Positions 1 to 6,795 of a stretch of 6,795 nt of DNA are shown here, piece after piece (the stretch's first letter is position 1; each line of letters begins with the position of its first letter). Position numbers and translations under genes: made by a program. Source of the stretch: a plasmid; NCBI RefSeq assembly GCF_053078305.1, contig NZ_CP166876.1. The stretch is one strand, 5' to 3'. Below the pieces are notes generated by a model. The model did not search any database and was not told the DNA's origin. It was given only the letters and a program-made list of their open reading frames with translations.

Positions 1-915
1 ATGAGCGCCGCGCTTCAATACTTCGAAGAAAATTTACCTCATCGTCCCTATCACACGGATGATCTCGCTTTCGGCCTTCGCATCTCCGGCAAAGGGCGCG
101 CTCTTCTTGCGCGCTACATCCAGCAGAACCAGCCACATGCGCAGTTCTGGCTGGTTTTTGACATTGACCGCGAGGGGGCTGCGATTGACTGGAGCGACCG
201 GAACGCTCCCGCGCCGAACATCACCGTAAAAAATCCTGTGAACGGTCATGCTCACCTGCTCTACGCGCTCAATATCGCCGTGAGAACCGCGCCGGACAGC
301 TCGGTTAAGGCGCTGAAATACGCCGCTGCGATTGAACGTTCGCTGTGTGAGAAACTTTGTGCTGATGTGAACTACAGCGGACTGATTTGCAAAAACCCGT
401 TCCACCTGGAATGGCAGGTGATGGAGTGGCGAGAGGAAGCCTATACCCTCGATGAACTGGCTGATTATCTCGATTTGAGTGCCTCAGCGCGCCGTAGCAT
501 CGATAAACATTACGGGATGGGGCGAAACTGCCACCTGTTCGAAATGACGCGCAAATGGGCTTACAGGGCGATTCGTCAGGGCTGGCCAGCATTCTCACAG
601 TGGCTTGATGCTGTGATTCAGCGTGTCGAAATGTACAACGCATCGCTTCCCGTTCCGCTTTCTCAGGCTGAATGTCGGGCTATTGGCAAGAGTATTGCGA
701 AATACACGCACAGGAACTTCACGCCGGAAACTTTCGCACAGTATGTGGCTGATACGCACACGCCAGAAATTCAGGCTACACGCGGTCGCAAGGGCGGTTC
801 TAAGTCTAAGCGCGGCACAGTAGCTACATCAGCACGCACGCTGAAACCTTGGGAGAAATTAGGGATCAGTCGCGCCTGGTATTACCAACTGAAAAAACGA
901 GGTCTCGTAGAGTAG
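1..915 (+). CDS. rep: ColE2-type plasmid replication initiator Rep (plasmid-specific primase)
   Basis: 304-aa ORF starting at window position 1. The N-terminus (MSAALQYFEENLPHRPY...QQNQPHAQFWLVFDIDREGAA...NITVKNPVNGHAHLLYAL) matches what I remember of ColE2/ColE3 Rep proteins, and its size is typical of them. A ColE2-like origin lies directly 3' of the stop codon, as in that family. Confidence 0.88.
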   Translation: MSAALQYFEENLPHRPYHTDDLAFGLRISGKGRALLARYIQQNQPHAQFWLVFDIDREGAAIDWSDRNAPAPNITVKNPVNGHAHLLYALNIAVRTAPDSSVKALKYAAAIERSLCEKLCADVNYSGLICKNPFHLEWQVMEWREEAYTLDELADYLDLSASARRSIDKHYGMGRNCHLFEMTRKWAYRAIRQGWPAFSQWLDAVIQRVEMYNASLPVPLSQAECRAIGKSIAKYTHRNFTPETFAQYVADTHTPEIQATRGRKGGSKSKRGTVATSARTLKPWEKLGISRAWYYQLKKRGLVE

Positions 916-965
916 ACCAAATAAGCCTATATCAGATAACAGCGCCTTTTTGGCGTCTTTTTGAG
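916..965 (+). other. ColE2-type replication origin (Rep binding and primer synthesis site)
   Basis: The sequence 'accaaataagcctatatcagataacagcgcctttttggcgtctttttgag' begins right after the rep stop codon. It closely resembles the ColE2/ColE3 minimal origin as I recall it (AGATAAGCC..TATCAGATAACAGCGCC), and the position immediately downstream of rep is the family arrangement. Exact boundaries are approximate. Confidence 0.6.
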
Positions 966-1038
966 CAGCTTGGTTTGTTGCTATTTCCCTCGTTGAATCC
1001 CGCAATGGCGCGGCTTTCCGCATGATTGAGGTGGTAGC

Positions 1039-1095
1039 GCTCGCCGCAGTCTCATGACCGAGCGTAGCGAGCGAATGAGCGAGGAAGCGCAAAGG
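1039..1095 (+). other. Putative single-strand initiation / primosome assembly site (ColE1/pMB1-like segment)
   Basis: The segment 'gctcgccgcagtctcatgaccgagcgtagcgagcgaatgagcgaggaagcgcaaagg' is about 75% identical, by eye, to the pMB1/pBR322 segment GCTCGCCGCAGCCGAACGACCGAGCGCAGCGAGTCAGTGAGCGAGGAAGCGGAAGAGCG. In ColE1-type plasmids that segment lies just downstream of ori in the region of the primosome assembly sites. Here it is in the same orientation and about 100 bp downstream of the ColE2-type ori. Function is inferred, not demonstrated. Confidence 0.4.
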
Positions 1096-1139
1096 TGTCG
1101 GTGGTGCATGTGGCACTTACGCGCCGGGGTTTCTCCGTT

Positions 1140-1406
1140 CTACGGTTTCGCAGGTGGTTTGGGTAGCTTCTCCAGCTCGTTAATCAGCGGTTGTATCCGG
1201 TTCACATCGGCCTGTCTTGTGACTTCCTTTCGCAGGAACTGGAGCAGGAACGCACGCAGTTGCGCCTCTTCCGGCCTCCGTACCCTCGCCAGCATGGCAG
1301 CCCCCACAATGACTTTTTGCGCCGTGTCCAGGCTCCGGCTCTTCGCCTTCAGGCGCTGTAATCTGGCCTCAGCTTCGGCAATCTTCTGTTCGAGTGTTCT
1401 GCTCAT
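1140..1406 (-). CDS. Mobilisation accessory protein, MobC-like
   Basis: 88-aa minus-strand ORF (MSRTLEQKIAEAEARLQRLKAKSRSL..KVIVGAAMLARV..) with a GGAG ribosome-binding site about 8 nt upstream of the ATG. It is divergent from the relaxase gene with the candidate oriT between them, which is the RSF1010 mobC-oriT-mobA arrangement. The basic, coiled N-terminus and the KV(I/L)VGA motif resemble RSF1010 MobC as I recall it. Confidence 0.65.
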   Translation of the reverse strand: MSRTLEQKIAEAEARLQRLKAKSRSLDTAQKVIVGAAMLARVRRPEEAQLRAFLLQFLRKEVTRQADVNRIQPLINELEKLPKPPAKP

Positions 1407-1489
1407 TTTGTGACTCCGTGCGCGGTGAAAAATCGCATTTTAGCGCGTCACTGGTAGTTGCAAAACCGAACTGGCATAATGCACGGCAC

Positions 1490-1545
1490 ATCACGAAGTG
1501 CGCACTTATACAATCTCCACTTCGTTTCGATTGTGTGCGCCCTGC
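1490..1545 (+). other. Candidate origin of transfer (oriT) with MOBQ-type nick region
   Basis: It lies in the intergenic region between the divergent mobC-like and mobA genes. It contains a perfect 12-bp palindrome 'aagtgcgcactt' (1496-1507), an inverted repeat 'acgaagtg' (1493-1500) / 'cacttcg' (1518-1524), and 'gtgcgccct' (1535-1543), which matches the RSF1010/R1162 nick region (TAAGTGCG/CCCT). The inferred nick is between 1539 and 1540. Confidence 0.5.
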
Positions 1546-1584
1546 GGGGCTGAAAGAAAACGGCAAAAAGGCATTACGGCAGAA

Positions 1585-3804
1585 ATGGCGATTTATCATC
1601 TCAGCATGAAAATCATTTCGCGAAAAAACGGCTACAGTGCCGTTGCTTCTGCTGCCTACCGTTCCGGCTCTGTCATACCCGATGACCGTACCGGATTAAC
1701 CCACGATTACACCCGTAAACGCGGCGTTGATGATGCGGTCATTCTCACCCCTGCGAATGCACCGTCCTGGTGTGGTGACCGTTCCGTTCTCTGGAATGCG
1801 GTCGAGAAAGCCGAACAGCGCCGGAACTCCCAGCTGGCAAGGGAGATTGAACTCGCCATTCCCCGTGAGATTTCCCGCGAGGCCGCACGGGAGACCGTTC
1901 TCGCTTTTGTCCGGGAAAACTTTGTCAGTCGGGGCATGATTGCCGATGTGGCGTTCCATCACATGGACCGGACCAATCCCCATGCGCACATCATGCTGAC
2001 CACGAGAGCTGTCGGGGAAACGGGATTCGCAGGAAAGGTCAGGGACTGGAACGACCGGGCACTCGCCGAGACGTGGCGCGCATCATGGGCTGACCATGCG
2101 AATAGAGCGCTTGCGAACGCCGGCTACCAGGAAGAGATAGACCATCGTTCATACGAGCGTCAGGGACTGGAGAAAGCGCCGGGCCTTCACCTCGGAAAGG
2201 CTGCCTGTGCGATGGAAAAACGGGGAATGGAAACAGAACGCGGTGAGCAGAACCGTCTGATTAACAGCCTTAACCTGGAAATACAGGTTTCCCGCACGCA
2301 GCTTGCTCTCAGGACGGTTCAGGAAGCGCAGCGTAAGCGGGAACTCAGCGATGCTGCACGTCGTGCAGCGGAAGCCCTTAACCTGACCATTCCCGCTGCG
2401 AATGCCTCAGCGGATACCCTGCGGGAATTCATTGCCACGCTGCCGCAGGAATGCGGGAACGCGTGGGAGATGACCCCGGAGTTCCTGGCGATGAGCGGGA
2501 AGGTGAACGACATCGAACGTGAGGGGAATGCGCTGCTGAAAGAGCAGGCCATTCTCGAAAAGGAGATGACCGGACTCAAAAAAGCACGCCCTGTCGCGTC
2601 CCTTCTGTCAGAGATTCCCCTGATGACATGGGCTGAACCGGAATACCGCAAAAGACAACTCCGTTTCTGGAAACTCGGGAAACAGATTGAATCTCTTCGC
2701 CGCACCTACAGGGCCGTGAAAGAACGGGACATTCCCGCCCGTCGTCAGGCCTTTGAAACGCAGTGGAATACGTGGATTGCGCCGGGAATGGCAGAGCTGA
2801 AAGAAAAACTGTCAGCACGGGAAGCGGAGCGGCGCAGGGAGGAAGCCGAAGCGGAAGCGCGCCGGAAGGAACAGGAGCATGAGGCGCGGCTGAAACGTCA
2901 TGATAACCACCGTCTGAGCCGTGAAACGGCATTAGTCGGGGTTATTACGGAGCTGGGGCGTGCCAGAGAGCCGGGAACGGGCAGGATAACCCGCTACATG
3001 ATGCTGAGTAACAGGGCCGGAGAATTCACGGTATGGGGTGATGAGCTGGCGCATTACCCCCGGAGTGTTCATGACCCGGTGAATGTTTATCTGTCGCCTG
3101 GCGGGGCTGTGATGGTCACGGATATACACGCAGGGCGGCCTGAATCTCATGAGACAATGGCGCGGCCTGAGCGTGTGAGAATGTATTCCGGTGCGACGGT
3201 CCGGCATGTACTGGAACAGATGCGCCAGGGGTGGCCCTCTTACGGTTTTCCGGCGCTGCCGCATCACTGGCCGGATAATTTTTATTTCAGCAACGACCGC
3301 AGGCCCGTAGCCTCTCCGCTACCGTCAGCGCACCGGGTGGATATCACCGCTGATGCGGCACCGGAACAACTCATGCCTGTTGTATTTTCGAGAGAGGGAA
3401 ACAGCAGGACGCTGAATCTGTTGTTGTGCAAAGGGCCGGAGGAAATGCTTGTCGGGTTTGTTCGCCGGGAAGGAGGGTTTTGCCCCGTTCTTGTGCTTCC
3501 GTCGCCGGATTACAGTCATCTGATGGTCAGCACCATCACGGAGAACGGGGTATGCCTGGCAGGTTACGGAGAAGCTATAAACCATGATGAGGATACTCCG
3601 TACCCACCGGAACCGCACCTGATGCAGTTCCGGCTCAAAGGCCATCATGACAGGCTTTTGGCTGCTGTCCACAAACCGGAAGAGATGCCGGATTATCTCT
3701 TCCGTCAACTCGGTTTTAATCAGACCTGGCATGAGTGGAAGCGGGACGAACAGCACAGGCAACAACAACGCCGCCCCGGGCACTTCCGGGGCATGAGTAT
3801 GTGA
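1585..3804 (+). CDS. mobA: Mobilisation relaxase, MobA/MobL family (MOBQ-like), with long C-terminal extension
   Basis: The N-terminus MAIYHLSMKIISRKNGYSAVASAAYRSG is the conserved MobA/MobL start, with a tyrosine at residue 25 (codon 1657-1659), the same position as the catalytic Tyr25 of RSF1010 MobA. A histidine-triad motif HHMDRTNPHAHIM sits around 1957-1995. The start is set at the in-frame ATG at 1585; the six-frame ORF begins at 1498 but that upstream stretch overlaps the oriT and lacks the family N-terminus. About 440 residues follow the relaxase domain. Confidence 0.88.
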   Translation: MAIYHLSMKIISRKNGYSAVASAAYRSGSVIPDDRTGLTHDYTRKRGVDDAVILTPANAPSWCGDRSVLWNAVEKAEQRRNSQLAREIELAIPREISREAARETVLAFVRENFVSRGMIADVAFHHMDRTNPHAHIMLTTRAVGETGFAGKVRDWNDRALAETWRASWADHANRALANAGYQEEIDHRSYERQGLEKAPGLHLGKAACAMEKRGMETERGEQNRLINSLNLEIQVSRTQLALRTVQEAQRKRELSDAARRAAEALNLTIPAANASADTLREFIATLPQECGNAWEMTPEFLAMSGKVNDIEREGNALLKEQAILEKEMTGLKKARPVASLLSEIPLMTWAEPEYRKRQLRFWKLGKQIESLRRTYRAVKERDIPARRQAFETQWNTWIAPGMAELKEKLSAREAERRREEAEAEARRKEQEHEARLKRHDNHRLSRETALVGVITELGRAREPGTGRITRYMMLSNRAGEFTVWGDELAHYPRSVHDPVNVYLSPGGAVMVTDIHAGRPESHETMARPERVRMYSGATVRHVLEQMRQGWPSYGFPALPHHWPDNFYFSNDRRPVASPLPSAHRVDITADAAPEQLMPVVFSREGNSRTLNLLLCKGPEEMLVGFVRREGGFCPVLVLPSPDYSHLMVSTITENGVCLAGYGEAINHDEDTPYPPEPHLMQFRLKGHHDRLLAAVHKPEEMPDYLFRQLGFNQTWHEWKRDEQHRQQQRRPGHFRGMSM

Positions 3805-3842
3805 TATCCGGGGCTGCACCTCGGACCCCGCCAACACATCAC

Positions 3843-3866
3843 GGGCCACAAAATTTTTTGTGGCCC
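3843..3866. terminator. GC-rich hairpin downstream of mobA (possible terminator)
   Basis: Palindrome 'gggccac aaaatttttt gtggccc' has a 7-bp GC-rich stem with an A/T loop, located 39 bp after the mobA stop. There is no clean T-run after the stem, so terminator function is uncertain. Confidence 0.35.
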
Positions 3867-3923
3867 GCTCTGCGTTTTCTAAGTGTTATCCCTCCTGATT
3901 TCTAAAAAATTTTCCACCTGAAC

Positions 3924-3952
3924 TTGACAGAAAAAACGATGACGGGTACTTT
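3924..3952 (+). promoter_or_regulatory. Putative colicin promoter (-35 TTGACA; -10 region uncertain)
   Basis: A perfect -35 hexamer 'ttgaca' at 3924-3929 lies upstream of the LexA boxes and about 110 bp upstream of the colicin ATG. The best -10 candidate about 17 bp downstream ('tacttt', 3947-3952) is weak, so exact promoter elements are uncertain. Confidence 0.5.
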
Positions 3953-3957
3953 TTGAT

Positions 3958-3988
3958 CTGTACATAAAACCAGTGGTTTTATGTACAG
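3958..3988 (+). promoter_or_regulatory. Overlapping dual LexA (SOS) boxes of a colicin operon
   Basis: The sequence 'ctgtacataaaaccagtggttttatgtacag' contains a first box CTGTACATAAAACCAG (3958-3973) and a second box overlapping its last base and ending in ACAG at 3988. This is the characteristic tandem overlapping SOS operator found upstream of colicin genes (CTGT-N8-ACAG type). Confidence 0.9.
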
Positions 3989-4036
3989 TATTAATCATGT
4001 AATTAATTGTTTTAACGCTTAAAAGAGGGAATTTTT

Positions 4037-5707
4037 ATGAGCGGTGGCGATGGACGCGGCCATAACACGGGCGCGCATAGCACAAGTGGTAACATTAATG
4101 GTGGCCCGACCGGGCTTGGTGTAGGTGGTGGTGCTTCTGATGGCTCCGGATGGAGTTCGGAAAATAACCCGTGGGGTGGTGGTTCCGGTAGCGGCATTCA
4201 CTGGGGTGGTGGTTCCGGTCATGGTAATGGCGGGGGGAATGGTAATTCCGGTGGTGGTTCGGGAACAGGCGGTAATCTGTCAGCAGTAGCTGCGCCAGTG
4301 GCATTTGGTTTTCCGGCACTTTCCACTCCAGGAGCTGGCGGTCTGGCGGTCAGTATTTCAGCGGGAGCATTATCGGCAGCTATTGCTGATATTATGGCTG
4401 CCCTGAAAGGACCGTTTAAATTTGGTCTTTGGGGGGTGGCTTTATATGGTGTATTGCCATCACAAATAGCGAAAGATGACCCCAATATGATGTCAAAGAT
4501 TGTGACGTCATTACCCGCAGATGATATTACTGAATCACCTGTCAGTTCATTACCTCTCGATAAGGCAACAGTAAACGTAAATGTTCGTGTTGTTGATGAT
4601 GTAAAAGACGAACGACAGAATATTTCGGTTGTTTCAGGTGTTCCGATGAGTGTTCCGGTGGTTGATGCAAAACCTACCGAACGTCCAGGTGTTTTTACGG
4701 CATCAATTCCAGGTGCACCTGTTCTGAATATTTCAGTTAATAACAGTACGCCAGCAGTACAGACATTAAGCCCAGGTGTTACAAATAATACTGATAAGGA
4801 TGTTCGCCCGGCAGGATTTACTCAGGGGGGTAATACCAGGGATGCAGTTATTCGATTCCCGAAGGACAGCGGTCATAATGCCGTATATGTTTCAGTGAGT
4901 GATGTTCTTAGCCCTGACCAGGTAAAACAACGTCAGGATGAAGAAAATCGCCGTCAGCAGGAATGGGATGCTACGCATCCGGTTGAAGCGGCTGAGCGAA
5001 ATTATGAACGCGCGCGTGCAGAGCTGAATCAGGCAAATGAAGATGTTGCCAGAAATCAGGAGCGACAGGCTAAAGCTGTTCAGGTTTATAATTCGCGTAA
5101 AAGCGAACTTGATGCAGCGAATAAAACTCTTGCTGATGCAATAGCTGAAATAAAACAATTTGAACGATTTGCACATGACCCAATGGCTGGCGGTCACAGA
5201 ATGTGGCAAATGGCCGGGCTTAAAGCTCAGCGGGCGCAGACGGATGTAAATAATAAGCAGGCTGCATTTGATGCTGCTGCAAAAGAGAAGGCAGATGCTG
5301 ATGCTGCATTAAGTACTGCGATGGAAAGCAGGAAGAAGAAAGAGGATAATAAAAGAGATGCTGAAGGCAAACTAAATGATGAGTTAGCAAAAAATAAAGG
5401 AAAGATACCAGGTCTAAAAATAGATCAGAAAATTAGGGGACAAATGCCAGAAAGAGGATGGACAGAGGATGATATCAAAAATACCGTATCTAACGGTGCA
5501 ACTGGTACATCTTTTGATAAGCGTAGTCCGAAGAAAACACCTCCAGACTATTTAGGTCGAAATGATCCAGCAACAGTGTATGGTTCTCCTGGTAAATATG
5601 TTGTTGTCAATGATCGTACTGGTGAGGTTACTCAGATTAGTGATAAGACAGATCCGGGTTGGGTGGACGATTCGAGAATTCAATGGGGAAATAAAAATGA
5701 CCAATAA
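4037..5707 (+). CDS. cea: E-group colicin (BtuB/Tol-dependent); C-terminal cytotoxic domain most consistent with E5-type anticodon tRNase
   Basis: 556-aa ORF with an AGAGGG ribosome-binding site upstream. The glycine-rich N-terminal translocation domain carries the TolB box DGSGW at residues 35-39 (nt 4139-4153), as in colicins E2/E3/E9. The central region is the long coiled-coil receptor-binding domain typical of E colicins. The C-terminal ~105 residues (KIPGLKIDQKIRGQMPERGW...WGNKNDQ) have no HNH motif and no histidine, which argues against the E2/E7/E8/E9 DNases; I do not recognise it as the E3 rRNase either, and it fits my recollection of the histidine-free E5 tRNase domain. It is preceded by the SOS operator and followed by immunity and lysis genes. 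Confidence 0.93.
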   Translation: MSGGDGRGHNTGAHSTSGNINGGPTGLGVGGGASDGSGWSSENNPWGGGSGSGIHWGGGSGHGNGGGNGNSGGGSGTGGNLSAVAAPVAFGFPALSTPGAGGLAVSISAGALSAAIADIMAALKGPFKFGLWGVALYGVLPSQIAKDDPNMMSKIVTSLPADDITESPVSSLPLDKATVNVNVRVVDDVKDERQNISVVSGVPMSVPVVDAKPTERPGVFTASIPGAPVLNISVNNSTPAVQTLSPGVTNNTDKDVRPAGFTQGGNTRDAVIRFPKDSGHNAVYVSVSDVLSPDQVKQRQDEENRRQQEWDATHPVEAAERNYERARAELNQANEDVARNQERQAKAVQVYNSRKSELDAANKTLADAIAEIKQFERFAHDPMAGGHRMWQMAGLKAQRAQTDVNNKQAAFDAAAKEKADADAALSTAMESRKKKEDNKRDAEGKLNDELAKNKGKIPGLKIDQKIRGQMPERGWTEDDIKNTVSNGATGTSFDKRSPKKTPPDYLGRNDPATVYGSPGKYVVVNDRTGEVTQISDKTDPGWVDDSRIQWGNKNDQ

Positions 5708-6026
5708 ATTATTTGAACATACGGTGTTATATGATAGTGGTGATGCCTTTTTTGAATTAAAAGGAAATGCTTCTATGAAGTTATCACCAAAAGCTGCAAT
5801 AGAAGTTTGTAATGAAGCAGCGAAAAAAGGCTTATGGATTTTGGGCATTGATGGTGGGCATTGGCTGAATCCTGGATTCAGGATAGATAGTTCAGCATCA
5901 TGGACATATGATATGCCGGAGGAATACAAATCAAAAATCCCTGAAAATAATAGATTGGCTATTGAAAATATTAAAGATGATATTGAGAATGGATACACTG
6001 CTTTCATTATCACGTTAAAGATGTAA
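5697..6026 (+). CDS. Colicin immunity protein (cognate inhibitor of the C-terminal nuclease domain)
   Basis: 109-aa ORF (MTNKLFEHTVLYDSGDAFFELKGN...) whose ATG at 5697 overlaps the colicin stop codon (5705-5707), the typical translationally coupled position of nuclease-colicin immunity genes. The six-frame ORF begins at 5562, but that extension lies wholly inside the colicin reading frame and is rejected. The gene is AT-rich like the cytotoxic domain. Confidence 0.85.
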   Translation: MTNKLFEHTVLYDSGDAFFELKGNASMKLSPKAAIEVCNEAAKKGLWILGIDGGHWLNPGFRIDSSASWTYDMPEEYKSKIPENNRLAIENIKDDIENGYTAFIITLKM

Positions 6027-6123
6027 ATAGTGTTATAGAATTTTATGTTTCATGGATGATTTCAACCTTTGGATTTCAGGTTTTTATGGATGAATGCCTG
6101 AGTCCATATATACAAGGAACAGT

Positions 6124-6267
6124 ATGAAAAAAATAACATGGATTATTTTATTGCTTCTTGCAGCCATTATTCTTGCTGCATGTCAGGCAAACTATATCCG
6201 CGATGTTCAGGGCGGGACTGTATCCCCGTCATCCTCAGCTGAACTGACCGGATTAGCAACGCAGTAA
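6124..6267 (+). CDS. Colicin lysis / release lipoprotein (bacteriocin release protein)
   Basis: Translation by hand gives the 47-aa protein [47 protein letters not shown], with a lipoprotein signal peptide and lipobox LAAC. It is nearly identical to the E-group colicin lysis proteins as I recall them. It is absent from the ORF track because it is short. A ribosome-binding site 'aaggaa' lies upstream. Confidence 0.9.
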
Positions 6268-6294
6268 CCCGAAATCCTCTTTGACAAGAACAAA

Positions 6295-6327
6295 GCGTGT
6301 CAGGCTGATTCTGACGCGCTTTTTTTT
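6295..6327 (+). terminator. Rho-independent terminator of the colicin operon
   Basis: A 9-bp stem 'gcgtgtcag' (6295-6303) pairs with 'ctgacgcgc' (6311-6319), with one G-U pair and a 7-nt loop, and is followed by a run of 8 T (6320-6327). It lies 28 bp after the lysis gene stop. Confidence 0.8.
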
Positions 6328-6463
6328 GAAGTGTCACAAAAATTCCATGTGGGAGATGGGATCTAAAATCCCCGTGCAGAACTTTCCATCCAGGGGGAGA
6401 AAACTTGTCGTTTTGAGCCGTTCGGTGTTCAGAACGCACGAAACCGATCGTGCATCGCTTTCG

Positions 6464-6477
6464 TGCATAGTTATGCA
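6464..6477. promoter_or_regulatory. ARG-box-like palindrome (candidate ArgR accessory site of the cer-like locus)
   Basis: Palindrome 'tgcatagttatgca' resembles the ARG box half-sites (TGAAT/ATTCA with a symmetric A-to-C change) and is centred about 120 bp upstream of the XerCD core, close to the spacing in ColE1 cer. A direct repeat 'tcgtgcat' (6448-6455 and 6461-6468) flanks it. Confidence 0.35.
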
Positions 6478-6578
6478 ACGCGCTAAAAACGATTCTGACG
6501 CATTTTTTATGTTTACCCTGGTGTTTCCTTGTCTTTTTGTTTTTTTTGCGTCAGAAAGCGATTGAGGGTGTTTTAAGG

Positions 6579-6606
6579 GGTGCGTACAACGGGAGTTATG
6601 GTAAAT
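6579..6606 (+). other. XerC/XerD site-specific recombination core (cer-like multimer resolution site)
   Basis: The sequence 'ggtgcgtacaa cgggag ttatggtaaat' has a XerC arm identical to ColE1 cer (GGTGCGTACAA), a 6-bp central region (cer has 8 bp) and a XerD arm TTATGGTAAAT identical to cer. About 180 bp of upstream accessory sequence (about 6400-6578) includes the ARG-box-like palindrome. Confidence 0.8.
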
Positions 6607-6619
6607 GGATCGGGTTTTG

Positions 6620-6795
6620 GGGAATAATCGACAGGGTTTGCCGTTGGGTGTAGTGTAAGCGACTGAAAAACAAACGCCCCGTAAATCGTGCTCTCACCGC
6701 CAAGATTGATCACGAAATTACAGGGCGCCGGGTTCCGCGTCTCCCGATGGGAAAGCGCGGTTAGTTAAACTGTGTACCGAGAGGAATCGTAACAC
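6620..6795 (+). promoter_or_regulatory. Presumed rep leader / copy-number control region (rep promoter, antisense-RNA target), continuing into rep at position 1 if the molecule is circular
   Basis: A ribosome-binding site 'gagagg' (6778-6783) sits about 12 nt before the window end, positioned for the rep ATG at 1 across the circular junction. An imperfect stem-loop 'ccgcgtctccc gat gggaaagcgcgg' is at about 6757-6780. A candidate sigma70 promoter has -35 'tcgaca' (6628-6633) and -10 'tagtgt' (6651-6656). ColE2-type replicons control Rep translation with an antisense RNA against this leader; the exact RNA ends cannot be set from sequence. Confidence 0.35.

Follow-up and report, generated by a model that had tools for sequence, protein, structure and literature searches.

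Replication of ColE2-P9 begins at an origin of 32 bp that lies downstream of rep, and its Rep protein is a plasmid-specific primase that works with DNA polymerase I, independently of RNA polymerase and of DnaG, to drive unidirectional replication from a 3-nt primer at a fixed site. Origins of this type typically contain a left and a right repeat (L and R) of the sequence 5′-CAGATAA-3′, specificity sites termed alpha and beta, and a primer site; the primer RNA itself has the sequence AGA. Sites alpha and beta have been named as specificity determinants and, in the literature, it is a few origin bases together with features of the Rep C-terminus that set specificity. The roles of the control region and of an antisense RNA in ColE2 replicons likewise come from the literature, in which incompatibility in replicons of this type is determined at two places, the control region and the origin. 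A published minimal form of the origin is the “ColE2 minimal origin” part of the DIAL-strain paper (aaaatgagaccagataagccttatcagataacagcgcc), which replicates when Rep is supplied in trans.

Here we compare these systems with a plasmid locus (NCBI RefSeq assembly GCF_053078305.1, contig NZ_CP166876.1) for which a first-pass annotation had proposed a ColE2-family origin at the rep stop codon. The window, by which we mean the whole stretch of 6,795 nucleotides that was analysed, is a complete small colicin-E5 plasmid with the following genes and gene-linked features:

1–915, plus strand: rep gene, 304 amino acids, from the list of open reading frames; its stop codon TAG occupies 913–915.
742–768, plus strand: codons for the 9-residue Rep segment YVADTHTPE, at about residues 248–256, seen as a gap in the alignments with a ColE2-type Rep and with 3VW4.
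1140–1406, minus strand: small open reading frame of the mobilisation region.
1585–3804: MobA/MobL relaxase.
4037–5707: colicin E5.
5697–6026, plus strand: ImmE5 (Pfam ImmE5, E=6e-26).
6124–6267: lysis protein.
6596–6795, plus strand: 5′ control region of rep with the antisense-RNA incompatibility determinant, from a 260-nt alignment upstream of rep.

Outside rep the genes are those for the relaxase, colicin E5, ImmE5 and the lysis protein, and no second replicon was found in the plasmid; a search of the whole window with Rfam at the gathering threshold returned zero families and no RNAI. Rfam has no curated family for the ColE2 antisense RNA. The first 11 nt of the ImmE5 gene coincide with the end of the colicin gene, and the “colicin transporter” of the nearest RefSeq records is, by Pfam, the colicin E5 immunity protein (5697–6026). 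Over its whole length the window is 99.2% identical to pO111-110512_4 of E. coli O111:H-. The divergence between the two is confined to patches of the relaxase gene at 2100–2500 and 3000–3200 (plus strand), with 86–98% identity per 100 nt; these patches differ from other relatives too, and this part of mobQ may therefore be variable or have undergone recombination.

The sequence that follows the rep TAG (913–915) reads ACCAAATAAGCCTATATCAGATAACAGCGCCTTTTTGGCGTCTTTTTGAG, and the features that can be assigned to this end of rep and the region beyond it are as follows:

914–946, plus strand: origin proper, 33 bp that match up with the 32 bp of the ColE2-P9 minimal origin in alignment A1 (AGACCAAATAAGCCTATATCAGATAACAGCGCC).
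918–924, plus strand: left repeat L, CAAATAA, a 6/7 match to the family sequence CAGATAA.
928–932, plus strand: spacer TATAT between the repeats, one base more than the TTAT of ColE2-P9 (alignment A1).
933–940, plus strand: right repeat with the invariant core, CAGATAAC, of which the window has this one exact copy.
942–962, plus strand: terminator-like hairpin GCGCC-TTTTT-GGCGT (942–956) and then CTTTTT (957–962), from the terminator scan.
963–1015, plus strand: variable spacer that travels with rep and the origin.
1023–1092, plus strand: sequence resembling a primosome assembly site (ssi/pas), with homologous segments in more than 5000 PLSDB plasmids including ColRNAI types.

In their 2006 work Yagura et al. 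reportedly numbered the minimal origin 7–38 of the 38-mer. For the present comparison the right end of the minimal origin (GCGCC) was taken from the published ColE2-P9 minimal-origin part, and the left end (the A of the ColE2 TGA) was derived from the stated length of 32 bp and the numbering attributed to Yagura et al. 2006. The reference sequence comes from the supplement of the DIAL-strain paper, and alignment A1 sets this published part beside the window, pColE3-CA38, pColE8 and a ColE2-type plasmid. In A1 the part maps onto the window up to 946, with 30/32 positions identical, one inserted base and the core TATCAGATAACAGC exact; both repeats are present, R (933–939) as an exact CAGATAA and L with 6/7 positions. 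The alignment is unambiguous, and the adjoining rep encodes a protein with Replicase and PriCT_1 domains, so that the proposed family and location are borne out. The placement needs adjusting in its details. The first-pass annotation had the origin start immediately after the TAG; it does adjoin the stop codon, but it begins at 914, with the AG of TAG, and overlaps the last 2 nt of the codon. The range that had been assigned to it, 916–965, does take in the origin, but its limits fall 2 nt late at the start and 19 nt past the minimal origin at the end.

This likeness is genuine and well outside what chance would produce. A single copy of the 26-mer ATAAGCCTATATCAGATAACAGCGCC is present, at 921–946, with no other site in the window within 3 mismatches, and it gave zero matches in 200 shuffles; the 8-mer CAGATAAC is found exactly only at 933–940 within the window. 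Furthermore, the core TATCAGATAACAGC is invariant in 24/24 family members compared, which include 16 PLSDB replicons and six distant loci on genome contigs. The latter came from a scan of genome contigs for TATCAGATAACAGC that returned 120 loci, nearly all of them chance 14-mer matches, and are the six that have a Rep homologue or an origin context (L093, L099, L100, L117, L137 and L138). The element is a textbook one, already known and common in sequenced enterobacterial plasmids: the segment 880–1010 matches 621 PLSDB plasmids, nearly all of them small, mobilisable and enterobacterial, with “replication initiation protein” annotated beneath the match.

It is informative to examine which specificity type this origin represents. 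The left repeat CAAATAA is also the state in ColE3-CA38 and ColE8, and the A at 920, where ColE2-P9 has G, is a candidate single-base specificity site; we infer that this base corresponds to site beta. The extra base between the repeats (928–932) is, judging from the alignments, the single-nucleotide indel specificity site. Shinohara and Itoh reportedly showed in 1996, by means of ColE2/ColE3 chimeras, that sites in the origin determine specificity. At the specificity sites the window agrees with ColE3 both in the added base of the spacer and in the A of L, and the comparison with the ColE2-P9 and ColE3-CA38 origins that the first-pass annotation had called for places the origin in the ColE3-CA38/ColE8 type and not in that of ColE2-P9, plasmids of which read TGAGACCAGATAAGCCT-TATCAGATAACAGCGCCCTTTTGGCGTC.

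The protein encoded by rep points in the same direction. Rep consists of an N-terminal primase (Replicase) domain, PriCT_1 and a C-terminal DNA-binding region, which is the layout of a primase-type initiator (Replicase/AEP, PriCT and a C-terminal DNA-binding region). Specifically, Pfam places Replicase (PF03090) at residues 28–156 (E=7e-44) and PriCT_1 (PF08708) at residues 174–236, and PDB 3VW4, the DNA-binding domain of ColE2-P9 Rep, matches residues 170–297 (E=3e-56); the C-terminal half of the ColE2-P9-type Rep WP_001277133.1 aligns to 3VW4 as the window Rep does, residue by residue. Overall identity is 85% to the ColE3-CA38 Rep and 76% to the ColE2-type Rep. Over the N-terminal 180 residues identity to the ColE3-CA38 Rep is only about 75%; over residues 184–304 it is 119/121, the differing residues being Q222 and A223 in the PriCT region, and residues 241–304 are all identical. 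The Rep of pColE8 differs at 3 residues. The 9-residue segment, whose gap can be placed only to within 1–2 residues, is present in ColE3-type Reps and absent from ColE2-P9 Rep, and in the alignments the C-terminal tail is also unlike that of ColE2-P9 Rep and of the full ColE2-type Rep. The window Rep has the ColE3-type C-terminal determinants, that is, both the 9-residue segment and the ...WYYQLKKRGLVE tail.

Co-variation between Rep and origin was followed in a sample of 16 ColE2-like replicons from PLSDB. In 16/16 replicons, presence of the 9-residue segment goes with an origin that reads CCTATATCAG and its absence with one that reads CCTTATCAG. Because this association of segment and extra base is found on at least three Rep tail backgrounds, it does not represent one inherited event. 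Likewise, the type of Rep tail varies in step with the left portion of the origin (GACCAAATAAGCC, GACCAGATAAGCC, GGAAAATAGCC, CACAAATAGCC and GAACAAGCC) across the 16 replicons. The 9-residue segment is the predicted protein partner of the extra origin base, and the co-variation is what one would predict were specificity determined by a handful of bases in the origin and by corresponding features of the Rep C-terminus; that few bases do so had been claimed for this locus, and origin variants that track Rep C-terminal variants across these 16 replicons uphold the claim. Taken together with the ColE3-like C-terminus of Rep, the pattern makes both origin and Rep members of the ColE3-CA38/ColE8 type. 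We consider it very improbable that the origin is instead of the ColE2-P9 specificity type, or promiscuous, such that it would cross-react with ColE2-P9 Rep. There are indeed only two differences within the minimal region, as that reading would have it; however, these are the two that distinguish ColE3-CA38-type from ColE2-type origins, origin sites are reported as specificity determinants, and the cognate Rep carries the 9-residue segment and C-terminal tail of the ColE3 type.

Just downstream of the core, the minimal origin runs into a hairpin. The left arm of this hairpin doubles as the right-hand end of the minimal origin, the loop and right arm (947–956) lie beyond it, and the right arm is outside the minimal-origin part that is known to work. 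The stem has 5 pairs (4 G-C and 1 G-U), the loop 5 nt, and CUUUUU follows; with its G+C-rich stem, short loop and U run, all on the strand of the upstream gene, 942–962 has the attributes of an intrinsic (rho-independent) terminator. The fragment folds as predicted, although not significantly better than shuffles (z=-1.6), and its stability is modest. Hairpin and T run are probably the terminator of the rep mRNA. A rival reading is that the segment serves chiefly to end and terminate the rep mRNA, with an origin likeness that is a relic and replication starting elsewhere. The terminator-like hairpin and T run do fill 942–962, but the core upstream of them is invariant in distant relatives, the variable origin positions co-vary with the DNA-binding region of Rep, no other replicon and no RNAI were found in the plasmid, and the homologous segment of ColE2-P9 is by itself a working origin; we regard the probability of such a relic as close to negligible.

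Folding predicts a hairpin from the AGC of the core onwards in nearly every relative, with arm sequences that differ, for example GCCCCC/GGGGGC in pEI2 of Edwardsiella, GCGCCC/GGGCGT, and CAGCC/GGCTG; a T run follows the hairpin in most of them. This conservation was read from folds of each sequence, as MAFFT set the distant sequences out of register. That the hairpin is a conserved functional extension of the origin, and more than a rep terminator, seems to us unlikely. Were it true, the hairpin could shield the Rep–origin complex from transcription that reads through rep, or it could fold on the displaced strand and so hold the origin open.

Several observations on hairpins in this region can be recorded separately. 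Among the distant relatives, hairpins with differing arms are seen in L012, L019, L099, L100 and L117. Two loci, L019 and L137, have the hairpin without a T run and fit a pure terminator role poorly. In L099 and L100 (minus strand as stored), the left half of the origin, AAGCCATATCAGA, recurs inverted just past the hairpin (TCTGATATGGCTT), so that the hairpin forms the centre of a large palindrome; the window showed no such structure. On the minus strand of the window, an inverted repeat GGTCT…AGACC at 901–918 spans the rep stop codon and the first origin bases and has T6 after it. The corresponding hairpin (918–901, minus strand) was considered as a convergent terminator and rejected, as its T run is made of Lys codons of rep and the repeat is probably due to chance; the equivalent of 901–918 in the ColE2-type sequence has only a weak inverted-repeat counterpart, without a T run.

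Our working model, in which we place high confidence, is that 914–946 is very probably the vegetative origin of a class C (ColE2-type) theta replicon, of the ColE3-CA38/ColE8 specificity type. By analogy with ColE2-P9, the plasmid's own Rep (1–915) would bind this origin through its C-terminal PriCT/helix-turn-helix half, which would read the left repeat region, the spacer with its extra base and the right repeat. Rep would open the duplex, and its N-terminal primase domain would lay the 3-nt primer AGA (934–936) on the minus strand; DNA polymerase I would extend this primer rightwards, unidirectionally and away from rep, and the lagging strand would start at the pas-like site (1023–1092) on the displaced plus strand. 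We infer that AGA at 934–936 marks the template position of the 3-nt primer RNA. Of the two strands of the core, only the plus strand reads AGA, which would put the primer on the minus strand and direct its extension rightwards, and the geometry of the pas-like site supports this direction. Plus-strand GC skew is positive nearly all round the plasmid, but most genes are on the plus strand, so the skew is confounded and a direction is not readable from it.

The pas-like segment (…GCTCGCCGCAG…GACCGAGCGTAGCGAGCGAATGAGCGAGGAAGCG…) is 75–93% identical to sequences in ColRNAI and other plasmids. Two ColRNAI plasmids (L144 and L145), oriented like the window, have RNAI on the minus strand 575–650 nt to the left of the segment, and hence RNA II and the leading strand run rightwards in both; L143 had been a candidate for this test of orientation and was replaced by these two, since it is not of ColE1 type. 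The RNA II of ColE1-type plasmids is usually about 555 nt long, and a primosome assembly site for the lagging strand is located just beyond the ColE1-type origin on the displaced strand. If an RNA II of about 555 nt is assumed, the segment in these two ColRNAI plasmids lies roughly 100–180 nt beyond the origin, on the displaced strand. In the window it lies 89–158 nt to the right of AGA in the orientation that it has in those plasmids, and thus its distance and strand relation to AGA match those to ColE1-type origins. Homology to the site downstream of the ColE1 origin and a position on the displaced (lagging-strand template) strand are the attributes of a PhiX174-type pas, and from these comparisons 1023–1092 is the probable start of the lagging strand. 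An ssi of ColE2 is on record, reportedly described by Nomura et al. 1991. In addition, the DIAL-strain paper describes small colonies with the bare minimal ColE2-P9 origin and normal ones with a 470-bp fragment, a contrast that is consistent with helpful flanking elements. If the hairpin does extend the origin, then hairpin and pas-like site together could account for the poor performance of the bare 32-bp origin beside the 470-bp fragment.

The position of the origin against rep has also been read as a sign of how Rep acts. From adjacency the first-pass annotation concluded that Rep acts in cis, but adjacency is no proof of this, and the ColE2-P9 Rep acts in trans on plasmids that carry only the origin. 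One could still suppose that Rep prefers to act in cis and that the origin abuts rep so that freshly made Rep loads onto the nearest site. Most enterobacterial members of the family have an origin that adjoins the rep stop codon or shares bases with it, and the minimal ColE2-P9 origin with Rep in trans gives small colonies, both of which such a preference would accommodate. Nonetheless, we find it improbable: ColE2-P9 Rep made from the chromosome or from a second plasmid keeps origin-only plasmids stable at 1–60 copies, a larger origin fragment cured the small-colony effect with rep not in cis, and the origins of relatives are found about 57 nt beyond rep (L015), past an intervening open reading frame (L019), inside rep, or about 300 nt downstream. 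An origin at the rep stop codon is the usual arrangement in the family, then, but not a universal one. Linkage offers a better rationale for the position of the origin beside rep, in that the specificity-determining 3′ end of the gene is passed on as a single unit with its target. No more than about 170 nt separate the origin from the codons for the Rep residues that read it, which keeps the pair together through inheritance, and the exchange of a block in the window's own history illustrates this linkage. As a separate observation, pEI2 of Edwardsiella ictaluri (L012) has at 1118–1321 only a frame of 68 codons that matches the Rep C-terminus, upstream of a good ColE2-like origin. The PLSDB gene table lists no rep for L012 1118–1321; the gene may be disrupted or simply unlisted.

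The exchanged block comprises control region, rep and origin and measures about 1.2 kb, from about 6600 through about 1015 across the ends of the window. It is 98–100% identical to pColE8. A ColE5-type plasmid of Shigella sonnei, by comparison, is 99–100% identical to the window over about 1015–6600 but only 56–86% identical over 1–1000, and its own rep and origin are of the ColE2-P9 type. With a block like that of pColE8 set in a backbone like that of the S. sonnei plasmid, it follows that control region, rep and origin were exchanged together; on the alignments, a ColE8-like block appears to have been swapped as one unit into a ColE5-type backbone. The junctions of the module are at 6596–6613 on the left and 1012–1019 on the right, the latter drawn from a base-level alignment with the S. 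sonnei ColE5-type plasmid, pColE8 and pColE3 and from the identity profile. A second ColE2-family plasmid, of another origin type, in the closest host strain was considered as a source for the swap and rejected: the other small plasmid of that strain is a ColE1-type colicin D plasmid, and its 46-kb plasmid is unrelated. Mosaics of this kind were reportedly treated by Hiraga et al. in 1994. The exchange seen here is an instance of the mosaic evolution already described for ColE2-family colicin plasmids, and the later literature cites Hiraga et al. 1994 for exchange of ColE2 replicon segments.

That the block includes the control region bears on what can be predicted from the origin. From about 6596 on, the control region is that of pColE8 and differs from the ColE2 and ColE3 types at a few bases. 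The antisense-RNA incompatibility determinant should lie at 6700–6760, and this interval (plus strand) contains a stem-loop of the rep 5′ untranslated region, CCGCG…CGCGG, which is identical to that of pColE8 and one base off the ColE2 and ColE3 types. Given two incompatibility determinants, the origin predicts Rep/origin specificity only. The first-pass annotation had expected the exact origin sequence to give the incompatibility or specificity group; the expectation stands as far as Rep/origin specificity is concerned and covers only one of the two determinants of incompatibility, the control region being the second. Within this scope, the type assignment predicts which ColE2-family plasmids this one should exclude through competition for Rep, as well as which pairings of Rep and origin should be mutually orthogonal when trans-replication systems are engineered. 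Its value is practical rather than conceptual.

Among the known systems set against the locus, the Pseudomonas PFP (RepA-PFP) and Psychrobacter plasmids have homologous Reps and a conserved origin core that includes AGA, but their origins are inside rep or up to about 300 nt downstream of it; in the PFP plasmids, incompatibility maps to the control module and not to the origin. ColE2-P9 shares the entire layout: rep is followed at its stop codon by the origin, with both repeats, the core TATCAGATAACAGC and the AGA site, and then by the hairpin and the T run, and the Rep of ColE2-P9 has the same domains. Within the minimal region it differs from the window in having G in place of A at 920 and one base fewer between the repeats, and outside that region in having C in place of T at window position 947; its stop codon is TGA, one base further upstream, and its Rep lacks the 9-residue segment and ends in another C-terminal tail. 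In pColE8 (NC_012882.1) the origin is identical through 962, the sole difference in 916–965 being at 963 (G here, A there), and the rep–origin block is 98–100% identical over window positions 1–1400 and the last ~200 nt, with positions 1020–1021 differing; the colicin and immunity genes are those of the E8 DNase there and of the E5 tRNase here. In pColE3-CA38 (NZ_KM287568.1, rep 3344–4258) the stop codon is TAG in the same position, and the sequence is identical over 914–955, with the added spacer base and the A of L among the shared positions. The sole difference in 916–965 is at 956, T here and C there, a position beyond the minimal origin at which the hairpin is closed by G-U here and by G-C there; as cargo, the window carries colicin E5 and pColE3-CA38 colicin E3.
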